From Vicinamibacterales bacterium (GTDB lineage: Bacteria; Acidobacteriota; Vicinamibacteria; Vicinamibacterales; UBA8438), in assembly GCA_965223015.1 (NCBI GenBank), contig CBDCVL010000002.1, positions 387,899-451,898 of the forward strand: DNA of 64,000 bases, read 5' to 3'. Of this stretch, positions 21,154-56,476 are shown in pieces; positions within the stretch are counted from its first letter, which is position 1, and every line of letters begins with the position of its first letter. A program made the position numbers and the translations under genes. Under the pieces are notes generated by a model. It was not told the DNA's origin. It saw only the letters and a list, made by a program, of their open reading frames with translations, and ran no database searches.

Positions 21154-22662
21154 ATGGATAGCGAGACCACCTTCGAAGAGTTTGCCGCCCTCGCCACGCA
21201 GGGCACCTTCGTGCCGGTGTGCAAAGAGGTCATGGCAGACATGCTCACTCCGGTGTCGGCCTTCCTCAAGGTTGCGGAGCAGGCGGAGCACGCCTTCTTG
21301 TTCGAGAGTGTGGAGGGGGGTGAGCGACTGGCCCGGTATTCGTTTCTCGGAAAGGACCCGTTCATGGTTCTCCGGGCCCGGAACGGGCAATGCATCGTCG
21401 ATCAGGCAGGCCAGCGGCAGGAGCGAGATGACCCGTTTTTCGATGTCTTGCGTGAGGTGATGGGACGGTTCACGTCTCCAGCGGTGGACGGACTGCCGCG
21501 TTTCACCGGTGGCGCGGTTGGGTTTCTCGGATACGAGTCAGCGCTCTGGTTCGAGCCGTCGCTCCAAGGATGCTGGAAGCGTTTCGACAAGACGACGCCT
21601 GACGACACAGACGACGCCGGCTTCATGCTGTTCGATACGGTCCTCGCGTTCGATCATCTGAAACATCGGATCTTGGTTATCGCGAATGCGGAGGTCGGCG
21701 AAGGCGTCGACCTTCGTGCGCAGTACGAGCTGGCGCAGGCCAAGATCAGATTCCTCGAGCGAGAGCTCGGCCGTGGTCTGTCGGACAGTTCCCAGGAGGA
21801 AGGCGGGAGTCTCGAATGGCGGTCGAACACCGCGCGCGCGACCTATGAGGAGTCGGTCGCAAAGGCACAGCGATACATCAAGGCTGGGGACATCTATCAG
21901 GTGGTCTTGTCTCAGCGATTCGAGACGGATGTCTCCGTGGACCCGTTCACGGTGTATCGGGCGCTTCGGTATGTGAACCCGTCGCCCTATATGTATTTCA
22001 TGCGACTAGGCGGGGTGTCGATCGTGGGGTCGTCCCCGGAGATGCTGGTGCGGGTCGAGGGGGACCGGGCCGAGACCCACCCGATCGCCGGAACTCGTCC
22101 CCGCGGGGAGAACGAGGTTCGGGACGAACAGCTGGCTGAGGAGCTCCGGGAGAACGAGAAAGAACGGGCCGAGCATGTCATGCTGGTCGACCTCGGGCGG
22201 AACGACCTCGGAAGGGTCTGCCAATACGGAACGGTGCGGGTGCCGCAGTATATGGGGCTCGAACGGTACTCGCATGTCATGCATCTCGTGTCGCGGGTCG
22301 TGGGGCGACTCGACGCTGAGCATGACCGCCTAGACGCGCTGGCAGCTTGCTTCCCCGCGGGGACCGTCTCGGGTGCGCCGAAGATCCGGGCGATGGAGAT
22401 CATCGCGGAGCTCGAGCCGACGACCCGCGGCATCTATTCCGGTGCGGTTGGGTATCTCGACTTCGCCGGGCATCTTGACTGCTGCATCACCATTCGCACG
22501 ATCGTGATGCGCGACGGCAAGGCGTACGTCCAGGCCGGGGCCGGGATCGTGGCCGACTCCGATCCCGCCGCCGAGTACCAGGAGACGCGCGACAAGGCCT
22601 CGGCGCTGATCCGGGCGCTTGAGATGGCGCAGAGCGGGCGAGGTCCTCGTGGTGTTGTCTAG
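21154..22662 (+). CDS. trpE: anthranilate synthase component I
   Basis: 502-aa ORF. GGAVGFLGYE, GTVSGAPKIRAMEII, GIYSGAVGYLDF. Confidence 0.95.
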   Translation: MDSETTFEEFAALATQGTFVPVCKEVMADMLTPVSAFLKVAEQAEHAFLFESVEGGERLARYSFLGKDPFMVLRARNGQCIVDQAGQRQERDDPFFDVLREVMGRFTSPAVDGLPRFTGGAVGFLGYESALWFEPSLQGCWKRFDKTTPDDTDDAGFMLFDTVLAFDHLKHRILVIANAEVGEGVDLRAQYELAQAKIRFLERELGRGLSDSSQEEGGSLEWRSNTARATYEESVAKAQRYIKAGDIYQVVLSQRFETDVSVDPFTVYRALRYVNPSPYMYFMRLGGVSIVGSSPEMLVRVEGDRAETHPIAGTRPRGENEVRDEQLAEELRENEKERAEHVMLVDLGRNDLGRVCQYGTVRVPQYMGLERYSHVMHLVSRVVGRLDAEHDRLDALAACFPAGTVSGAPKIRAMEIIAELEPTTRGIYSGAVGYLDFAGHLDCCITIRTIVMRDGKAYVQAGAGIVADSDPAAEYQETRDKASALIRALEMAQSGRGPRGVV

Positions 22663-22822
22663 TGTCCCGAGCATGAAACACCTAGCCATTCGGCCGGCGG
22701 TGCATCCGGTCTGGCGGCGTTGCGAATCGCTCGAATATTCCCGATATTCTCGCTCTTCACGCCTGGCCAGCCCGGCGCATCATCGCCCTCGGTGGCAAGG
22801 TGTTTCATACTCGGGACACTAG
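22659..22822 (+). repeat. 164-bp foldback (MITE-like) repeat, family R1, copy 1
   Basis: CTAG...CTAG termini, 25-nt terminal inverted arms (24/25 complementary), and a conserved core GGCGTTGCGAATCGCTCGAATATTCCCGATATTCTCGCTCTTC. The first CTAG contains the trpE TAG stop. Confidence 0.85.
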
Positions 22823-22844
22823 CAGGGGAGATCGACGGCAGACA

Positions 22845-23411
22845 ATGGTACTCGTCATCGACAACTACGATTCGTTCACGTACAACCTCGTCCAGTATCT
22901 GGGTGAGCTTGGGGCCGACGTGCTCGTGAAGCGAAACGATGAGCTTTCGCTCGAGACCGTGGAGGAGATTCAGCCTGACCGGATCGTGATCTCGCCGGGT
23001 CCGGGGCGACCGGAAGCGGCGGGTGTCAGCGTGGGGGTGGTTCGGCGATATGGGTCCTCCATTCCGATACTTGGCGTCTGCCTCGGGCATCAGGCGATCG
23101 GATATGCGTTCGGCGCCACGATCGTGTCGGCGCCGGTCCTGGTGCACGGGAAGTCGTCGGAGATTCAGCACGACGAAAGAGGAGTCTTCAGGGGGATTTC
23201 GAGCCCGTTTAGGGCCGGCCGGTATCACTCGTTGGTCGTCTCGGCAGAGGGGTGGCCGGAGGACCTTGAAGTCTCTGCTCGCACGATCGACGGCAGCACG
23301 ATCATGGGGATTCGCCACCGAGAGTGGCCGGTGCAGGGTGTGCAGTTTCACCCCGAGAGTGTGTTGACCGACGTTGGGAAGACTCTGCTCGGGAACTTTC
23401 TGGAGAGCTGA
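22845..23411 (+). CDS. trpG: anthranilate synthase component II (glutamine amidotransferase)
   Basis: Start at ATG 22845 (MVLVIDNYDSFTYNL). The track start 22800 lies inside the repeat. GVCLGHQAI catalytic Cys, FHPES. Confidence 0.9.
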   Translation: MVLVIDNYDSFTYNLVQYLGELGADVLVKRNDELSLETVEEIQPDRIVISPGPGRPEAAGVSVGVVRRYGSSIPILGVCLGHQAIGYAFGATIVSAPVLVHGKSSEIQHDERGVFRGISSPFRAGRYHSLVVSAEGWPEDLEVSARTIDGSTIMGIRHREWPVQGVQFHPESVLTDVGKTLLGNFLES

Positions 23412-40804: not shown

Positions 40805-40878
40805 GAGTCTCCTTCAGAGTCGAAAACCGGTTTCGTCGCGCCAAGGCAGTCTTTGCCGCGCGTTCGGGATCACGGTGA

Positions 40879-40889
40879 CGGGACACTAG
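40879..40889 (-). repeat. solo 11-nt match to the R1 repeat terminus (CTAGTGTCCCG) at the lexA stop codon
   Basis: The minus strand reads TAC-TAG-TGTCCCG, identical to the first 11 nt of copy 1. No partner arm is present. Confidence 0.25.
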
Positions 40890-50375: not shown

Positions 50376-50539
50376 CTAGTGTAGTGAGTGCAACAGATCT
50401 GCACACCGAGGCTGGCGCTGCGCCCGGATGGCAAGGCGCGAAGAGCGAGAATATTGGGCATATTCGAGCGATGAGCAACGCCACCAGGCGGGATACAGCG
50501 CCGGCCGAATGTATGGATCTGTTGCACTCACCACACCAG
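50376..50539 (-). repeat. 164-bp foldback (MITE-like) repeat, family R1, copy 3 (reverse orientation, divergent arms)
   Basis: Exactly 164 bp. The core is ~80% identical to copies 1 and 2. The arms differ from copy 1 at 12/25 positions yet are 22/24 self-complementary. Confidence 0.8.
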
Positions 50540-56312: not shown

Positions 56313-56476
56313 CTAGTGTCCCGAGTACGAAGTACCTAGCCATTCGGCCGGCGCTGCATCCCGCCTGTCGGCGTTGCGAATCGCTCGAATATTCCCGATA
56401 TTCTCGCTCTTCGAGCCTGGCCAGTCGGGCGCATCGCCATCCTCGATGACAAGGTATTTCATACTCGGAACACTAG
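56313..56476 (+). repeat. 164-bp foldback (MITE-like) repeat, family R1, copy 2
   Basis: Same length and CTAG termini as copy 1. Arms 22/25 complementary (3 transitions). The last CTAG contains the hspR TAG stop (minus strand). Confidence 0.85.

Follow-up and report, generated by a model that had tools for sequence, protein, structure and literature searches.

Correia elements (CREE/NEMIS) of Neisseria are foldback MITEs (miniature transposable elements bounded by inverted repeats) of 100–160 bp, with 26-bp terminal repeats and an IHF site, that lie at TA, often in operons, with which they are co-transcribed; they are substrates of RNase III and carry promoter elements. We analysed a 64,000-nucleotide stretch of DNA from a Vicinamibacterales bacterium (the window; assembly GCA_965223015.1, contig CBDCVL010000002.1, positions 387,899–451,898), in which a 164-bp foldback separates the anthranilate synthase genes trpE and trpG. 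This trpE element is likely to be a foldback MITE that is non-autonomous and belongs to the IS630/Tc1-mariner type. Its likeness to Correia elements is one of architecture only: the habit of its family of occupying CTAG and stop codons, and a core found across phyla, are not Correia features.

IS630-family MITEs, with MITEEc1 listed under IS630 in ISfinder according to PMC11602168, and the eukaryotic Stowaway/Tc1-mariner MITEs share with the trpE element a non-coding sequence of about 160 bp, IS630-type terminal repeats, a preference for CTAG and the potential to form a long hairpin, and probably also duplication of TA and movement in trans. The trpE element departs from IS630-family MITEs in that both arms come from one (left) insertion-sequence end, and in that its interior is a conserved hairpin module also found with the ends of other transposon families. 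Its family is undescribed and so far known only from uncultured soil and water bacteria. A second group comprises MITEPsy1, paired with ISPsy2 of the IS5 family in Pseudomonas syringae and targeting CTAG or YTAA (PMC3189936), and MITEPye1, paired with ISPye18 of the IS1182 family in Paracoccus yeei (PMC11578231). Both are small, with 18-nt repeats matching a resident insertion sequence and 4-bp duplications. Relatives of the trpE element that we term V type behave alike, whereas the trpE copy itself has IS630-type ends, is longer and is fully palindromic. REP, BIME and REPIN sequences, which depend on RAYT transposases, are 20–40 bp long with a GTAG or CGTC tag and cause no target duplication (PMC3733652). 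Like REP and BIME sequences, the present family consists of intergenic palindromes behind genes, in many copies and with covarying stems; unlike them, the trpE element is 158 bp long without its target, has TA/CTAG flanks and resides in a genome without a Y1 transposase (PF01797).

A preliminary description of this DNA had reported the 164-bp foldback with CTAG at both ends, inverted 25-nt arms and a palindromic interior, and all of these features were recovered. Window positions 22659–22822 read CTAG-TGTCCCGAGCATGAAACACC...GGTGTTTCATACTCGGGACA-CTAG, the arms pair at 24 of 25 positions, and positions 22659–22688 and 22793–22822 are inverted over 30 nt with 93% complementarity. The arm sequence, allowing up to three mismatches, occurs three times in the window and in none of 100 shuffles. 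Folded as RNA, the whole 164 nt form one hairpin of −94.7 kcal/mol (z = −9.8); folded as DNA they reach −52.2 kcal/mol (z = −8.1). The hairpin apex is GAATATT-CCC-GATATTC, and the TAG stop of trpE (22660–22662) is indeed the TAG of the left CTAG (22659–22662). The earlier statement that the element holds no open reading frame stands as far as a conserved frame is concerned, none being found in it, but chance frames do overlap it. The features of the locus are as follows.

21154–22662, (+): trpE, anthranilate synthase component I, open reading frame (TIGR00564, 550.5 bits, above cut-off)
22660–22661: left copy of the putative target TA, within CTAG 22659–22662, placed by comparison of empty and filled sites
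22662–22819, (+): body of the probable hairpin MITE, A type, 158 bp, GTG...CAC
22662–22686, (+): left terminal inverted repeat, GTGTCCCGAGCATGAAACACCTAGC
22687–22794, (+): conserved hairpin core, delimited by core-only BLAST matches at element positions 29–136, by alignment and by covarying interior stems
22717–22763, (+): apex module GCGTTGC..TCG.TC..ATA..CCC..TAT.CTC.CTC.TC.CGCC, the most conserved portion
22740–22742: apical loop CCC
22795–22819, (−): right terminal inverted repeat, one mismatch to the left arm within the terminal 25 nt
22820–22821: right copy of the putative target TA, G22822 being the G of the original TAG stop
22824–22830, (+): AGGGGAG, likely ribosome-binding site of trpG judging from its sequence, outside the hairpin and 14 nt before the ATG
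22845–23411, (+): trpG, anthranilate synthase glutamine amidotransferase (TIGR00566, 247.8 bits)

Downstream of trpG lies trpD, identified by NCBIfam TIGR01245, and trpG orthologues are present in all 10 congeners.

Comparison within the genus shows what the locus looks like without the element. In all nine other genomes the trpE–trpG spacer measures 8–35 nt, lacks the element and leaves the stop codon in place; TrpE of these congeners ends ...GRGP(R/K)(G/I)(V/I)G with TAG, TAA or TGA as its stop, and the C terminus encoded in the window, ...GRGPRGVV*, aligns to ...GRGPRGVG* of congeners. If the element is subtracted from the window together with one TA, what is left reads GTTGTC-TAG-CAGGGGAGATCGACGGCAGACA-ATG, which is collinear with the empty site of congener G007, GTTGGG-TAG-GTGAGCTGGACGGCGGTACAC-ATG. 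Hence the TAG stop predates the insertion. The preliminary description had offered two possibilities, that the element targeted a CTAG holding the stop codon or that it now supplies the stop, and the comparison points to both: a CTAG containing the TAG stop was targeted, and the stop was then rebuilt, since the first base of the element is G and the duplicated TA plus this G again spells TAG. It had also named an ancestral structured spacer as the reading that would displace an inserted repeat. An inserted repeat is what the data support: the site is empty in nine of nine congeners, the genome has some 44 loci, and the number of copies varies patchily between relatives, the family being found in 26 of 41 related genomes at 0 to more than 20 copies each. 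Judged from these alignments, the trpE copy is a real and recent insertion.

The same stop codon carries a trace of another subfamily elsewhere in the genus. At the trpE–trpG junction of congener G002 (locus L168) the sequence is GGCTA[GTCTGTTGCACTCACCACAC]TAAGTCA, compared with the empty site GGCTAAGTCA in G004; the bracketed sequence is a 20-nt remnant of the right arm of a B-type element. The G002 trpE stop is TAG and that of its closest relatives TAA. As the alignment reads, this remnant is a second, independent hit at the trpE stop, one that would have changed TAA to TAG.

We next consider which transposase could have acted on the trpE element. Among the partner types put forward in the preliminary description, IS630 has ends that match the arms. 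An IS630-family insertion sequence of 1149 bp, flanked C-TA...TA-G, occurs at least 17 times in congener G003, and its transposase scores 274.5 bits on NF033545 (IS630; cut-off 100). The left end of this insertion sequence, GTGTCCTGAGTACGAAATAGCT, matches A-type arms at 17–20 of 22 positions, the trpE copy itself at 17 (left arm) and 18 (right arm); both arms of the trpE copy are thus copies of an IS630-lineage left terminal repeat. The right end matches the arms of B-type elements at 15–17 of 22 positions, and IS630-family insertion sequences elsewhere in the same bacterial family have ends in the style of the A type; other IS630 lineages there carry F- and H/I-like ends. Its small size, lack of coding capacity, 25–30-nt arms (93–96% complementary), flanking TA, empty sites and multiple copies mark the trpE copy as a MITE. 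Its ends and, less securely, a putative duplication of TA agree with the IS630 type, with which only the lack of a partner in the same genome is at odds.

We infer the following course of events. An IS630-family DDE transposase supplied in trans would have moved the element into the CTAG at the end of trpE and duplicated the TA, and would later have been lost from this genome while persisting in a congener. The TA and the G of the element would restore the stop and leave TrpE unchanged, and trpG would retain a ribosome-binding site of its own, which lies beyond the insertion on the downstream side. Most likely the copy is a passenger that the cell tolerates; in the transcript of the trp operon it would presumably form a very stable hairpin and not act as a terminator. 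The A-type copies of this genome look like stranded fossils, to judge from their sequences, because the genome holds no close homologue of the transposase and the copies are only 78–92% alike.

Several observations weigh against the assignment to IS630. No transposase with matching ends was found in this genome, which is 93.7% complete, and the best homologue of the G003 enzyme has 31% identity; the matches at this level fall at a resident IS630 present in 55 copies, whose ends differ (AAGCGCTTTTCA). The match between arms and IS630 left end, at 77–91%, is short of identity, and the mobility of the element is deduced from sequence comparison rather than directly observed. The choice of TA as the target rests on a few non-canonical copies and the G002 remnant, as 2-bp and 4-bp duplications look alike at a palindromic CTAG. 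Finally, the core has no homology to the interior of any sampled IS630 or IS1182-like sequence.

Other resident insertion sequences were considered as partners. The 55-copy IS630 was rejected, its ends AAGCGCTTTTCA being unrelated to the arms, as was the resident IS5, with equally unrelated ends GAACGCTCTGAACAAGG. A partner of the IS427/IS1031 or Harbinger type was also set aside, PF13340 being absent from the genome and PF13359 giving only a sub-threshold match to that same IS5. A search of this genome for a larger element with A-type ends returned decayed solo arms only. The resident IS630 is about 1.02 kb long (for example C8:240752-241777) and occurs in some 55 near-identical copies. Their ends are TA-AAGCGCTTTTCA, their transposase is frameshifted, and every copy sits in a (C/T)TA(G/A) site. 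The IS5-group insertion sequence is single, lies at about C12:1100–2000 on a 21-kb contig and has a 4-bp CTAA duplication.

The other abundant resident, which like the IS630 targets CTAG and like it lacks A-type ends, is a 1466-bp IS1182-like element present in nine full copies (for example C7:240851-242316), five of them with an intact 460-aa frame. It matches NF033551 (IS1182; E = 6.5e-45), contains DUF772 and DDE_Tnp_1, and reads CTAG-CAGCCCGTGGTGAAAGTCC...CTG-CTAG. The trpE element could be an IS1182/IS5-superfamily MITE that duplicated the whole CTAG (4 bp) and was moved by this insertion sequence. All nine resident copies sit as CTAG-CAGCCCGTGG...CTG-CTAG, and these ends are exactly the arms of the V-type hairpins, which combine them with the same core and are common in other genomes. 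V-type copies at non-CTAG sites have 4-bp direct repeats (ATAC, CTTG, TCAA and TTGA), one insertion sequence shows GTAG, and published IS1182- and IS5-derived MITEs duplicate 4 bp, some of them at CTAG (PMC11578231, PMC3189936). The properties of such a MITE are therefore found in the V-type relatives, but not in the A-type trpE copy, whose termini, TA-GTGTCCCGAG, share only CCCG..GAAA with CAGCCCGTGGTGAAAG and are much closer to the left end of the IS630. The CAGCCCGTGG end is retained by every IS1182-like paralogue found in the genus, even at 67% amino-acid identity. The target itself also speaks for TA. In TG-type copies (loci L095, L050 and L065) the left flank is T-TA-G and the right CAC-TA-G, a mismatch between the sides that favours a 2-bp duplication of TA over a 4-bp one and contradicts duplication of CTAG (T-TA-G/C-TA-G). 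The C-TA...TA-G flank consensus and the G002 remnant likewise favour TA, a palindromic CTAG in itself fitting 2 or 4 bp. On balance, mobilization of the trpE copy by the IS1182-like element is unlikely. In congeners G007 and G004 this 1466-bp insertion sequence reaches 60–75 copies.

Two further explanations were considered. In one, an enzyme that recognizes the apex, HUH/RAYT-like or other, would mobilize the family in the form of a folded single strand, in place of a terminal-repeat transposase. Covariation extends throughout the stem, beyond the arms, conservation is seen in the pyrimidine-rich internal loops and is higher in the apex than at the termini, and length is constant at 158–166 bp across arm types, all of which would suit such an enzyme. 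Yet target duplications exist, the arms correspond to ends found on real insertion sequences, the genome has no Y1 transposase gene (PF01797), and 69- and 128-bp elements with the same arms and no apex are multi-copy in genome G042, so that this route is highly improbable. In the other, the hairpin would be a selected part of the trp operon, acquired or co-opted as an RNase III site, mRNA stabilizer or internal promoter uncoupling trpE from trpGDC. In favour of this, the hairpin is very stable as RNA, its insertion has been tolerated inside an essential biosynthetic operon, at least eight other copies fill complete spacers between co-directional genes, and a weak −35/−10-like pair faces trpG. 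The last of these had been noted in the preliminary description: TTGCGA (22720–22725), a 17-nt spacer and GATATT (22743–22748) are there, but they agree with the consensus at only 8 of 12 positions, which is under the threshold of the scan, and a scan for promoters and terminators called none inside the trpE element. Nor does the hairpin have the form of an intrinsic terminator, its stem being followed by CAGGGGAG with no U-tract. Against a role in the operon stand also the absence of the element from all nine congeners, its status as one of about 44 dispersed copies whose contexts include convergent gene ends, the decay of individual copies and the lack of an orientation bias. In other genomes 12 copies lie in the same direction as neighbouring transcription and 13 in the opposite one; a hand count in this genome gave about 19 and 10, taken as non-significant without a statistical test. 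We regard a selected role in the trp operon as very unlikely.

For the favoured IS630-type MITE, read-through into trpG is the economical assumption because genes of tryptophan synthesis lie downstream and many copies sit inside tight co-directional pairs. By analogy with Correia elements, a double-strand-specific RNase might plausibly process the hairpin. Rfam 15 gave no match at the gathering score; the sole match up to E = 10 is noise, at 11.8 bits compared with a gathering score of 44.

The interior of the element raises a question of its own. A scan with a 42-nt apex pattern (25 fixed bases; about 0.001 chance matches estimated for the collection) identified more than 117 loci in metagenome-assembled genomes (MAGs) of several phyla. 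Labels among the matches listed are Vicinamibacterales, other Acidobacteriota, Nitrospirales, Gammaproteobacteria, Deltaproteobacteria, Saprospirales/Phaeodactylibacter, Brocadiaceae and Thermoanaerobaculia, and at phylum level they include Bacteroidota and Planctomycetota. The matches are hairpins of about 160 bp bounded by TA or CTAG and fall into several arm classes, one of which, among the matches listed, is GGGCCCGTCAGGG, flanked by a direct TTA. A core of about 105 nt is hence paired with IS630-like, IS1182-like and TTA-duplicating ends. RNAalifold analysis of 73 non-redundant copies revealed compensatory changes in the arms and in interior stems, exemplified by pairs 35–129 (GC 27, AU 21, CG 12), 72–94 (GC 35, CG 22), 76–90 (CG 28, AU 25) and 80–86 (UA 42, CG 21), and two pyrimidine-rich internal loops that are unpaired and conserved in this alignment. 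The cross-phylum sample was chosen by the pattern, which builds in part of its invariant positions; conservation looks the same among the copies of this genome, which were gathered with nhmmer.

Conservation of the core is seen between arm types. A and D types differ by 70% in the arms, 41% in the basal core and 30% in the apex, whereas decay of single copies within types amounts to 6–13% in all regions, slightly less in the apex (65 of 893 compared with 235 of 2178 positions). The constraint on the core thus seems to act on spreading lineages and not on a host function of single copies. It is possible, though we hold it only tentatively, that the core (about 105 nt), and its 47-nt apex in particular, is a functional module kept by selection on spreading elements in at least six phylum-level lineages. 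Such a module could act in cis as the site of a factor, from host or transposon, that promotes transposition or element survival; alternatively, the hairpin could have been captured repeatedly as filler in gap repair. As the core is not derived from any of the IS630 or IS1182-like interiors sampled, simple internal deletion does not explain the element. Three origins or functions were considered: a leftover insertion-sequence interior, rejected because the IS1182-like and IS630 sequences sampled show no homology; a nested element in the central CTAG of a short palindrome, unsupported since the B type has CTAG at both arm/core junctions but the V type none; and a "molecular ruler" enzyme that reads the apex, rejected in view of variants of 69 and 128 bp that keep the same arms but have no apex. 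These variants are multi-copy in G042, and the apex is therefore not strictly required for movement. G042 itself is a gammaproteobacterial MAG (Pseudomonadales, OY760226.1; for example loci L176–L190) in which V arms enclose interiors of 69, 83, 128, 141, 164, 172, 181, 187, 211 and 227 bp. These interiors are built from a few recurring modules, a mosaic reminiscent of BIME or BOX elements.

The setting of the trpE copy at a stop codon is a recurrent one in this genome. CTAG occurs 3277 times where 13702 are expected, a four-fold shortage, and 401 of these sites are stop codons; they make up about 12% of all CTAGs and about one-fifth of those outside gene bodies. By crude gene calls, the TAG stop of a neighbouring gene lies inside a terminal CTAG at 11–12 of 44 loci, and at least eight copies fill the whole spacer between co-directional genes. 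Since a good many of the CTAGs in which an insertion can be tolerated are TAG stops with C in front, the family accumulates on stop codons and fills operon spacers; CTAG targeting and purifying selection account for the habit, and no special homing mechanism is needed. The same crude gene calls put TAG at 39% of stops (1129 of 2920, with C before 405 of the TAGs), high for a genome of 62.6% G+C, and this share may partly reflect CTAG-seeking elements.

The family is undescribed, none of the full-text literature searched containing a description of it, and the plasmid, phage and IMG/VR collections gave no match to the element. The kind of element is well known, and as a feature of a trp operon it is ordinary. 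Vicinamibacterales are very common soil bacteria, and in them such CTAG-seeking mini-transposons reshape gene ends and can turn TAA into TAG. In annotation, mobile DNA is to be expected at their gene ends and behind intergenic "regulatory hairpins", which in operons such as trp reach nearly −95 kcal/mol, and the presence or absence of single copies provides markers that separate genomes within the genus. A conserved module with unrelated transposon ends across phyla is not predicted by standard MITE models, in which the interior is parental junk.

The preliminary description had counted three full-length copies, a large undercount. An iterated nhmmer search of the 4.0-Mb assembly found 44 loci, about 30 of them full length (158–166 bp), with at least eight arm types (A to I) around a core of about 105 nt common to all. 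Full-length copies end CTAGTG...CACTAG or a decayed version of it, 13 having intact ends. In 16 of 18 copies the base before the left TA is C, in 17 of 18 the base after the right TA is G, and no further flank positions are conserved. Solo arms, like copies with internal deletions, are products of decay. Besides the trpE copy, the window contains the following members of the family.

40869–40889, (−): solo F-type arm CTAGTGTCCCGTCACCGTGAT without core, remnant of a decayed copy
50376–50539, (−): B-type copy with arms GTGTGGTGAGTGCAACAGATC, right end decayed to CCAG
56313–56476, (+): A-type copy between an HspR-like MerR gene and a DnaJ/CbpA-like gene

Both further copies named previously are real. 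The copy at 56313–56476 is 86–88% identical, and that at 50376–50539 shares the core but has B-type arms, the opposite orientation and a degenerate CCAG end.

At 56313–56476 the stop of the HspR-like gene lies in the right CTAG and the start of the DnaJ/CbpA-like gene 10 nt from the left end; the copy occupies the entire spacer of a likely heat-shock operon. The resident 1.02-kb IS630 has landed on the terminal TA of three hairpin copies (C8:241776, C9:165243 and C8:104065). At C3:147206-147594 three partial cores stand in tandem, about 113 bp apart, without recognizable arms.

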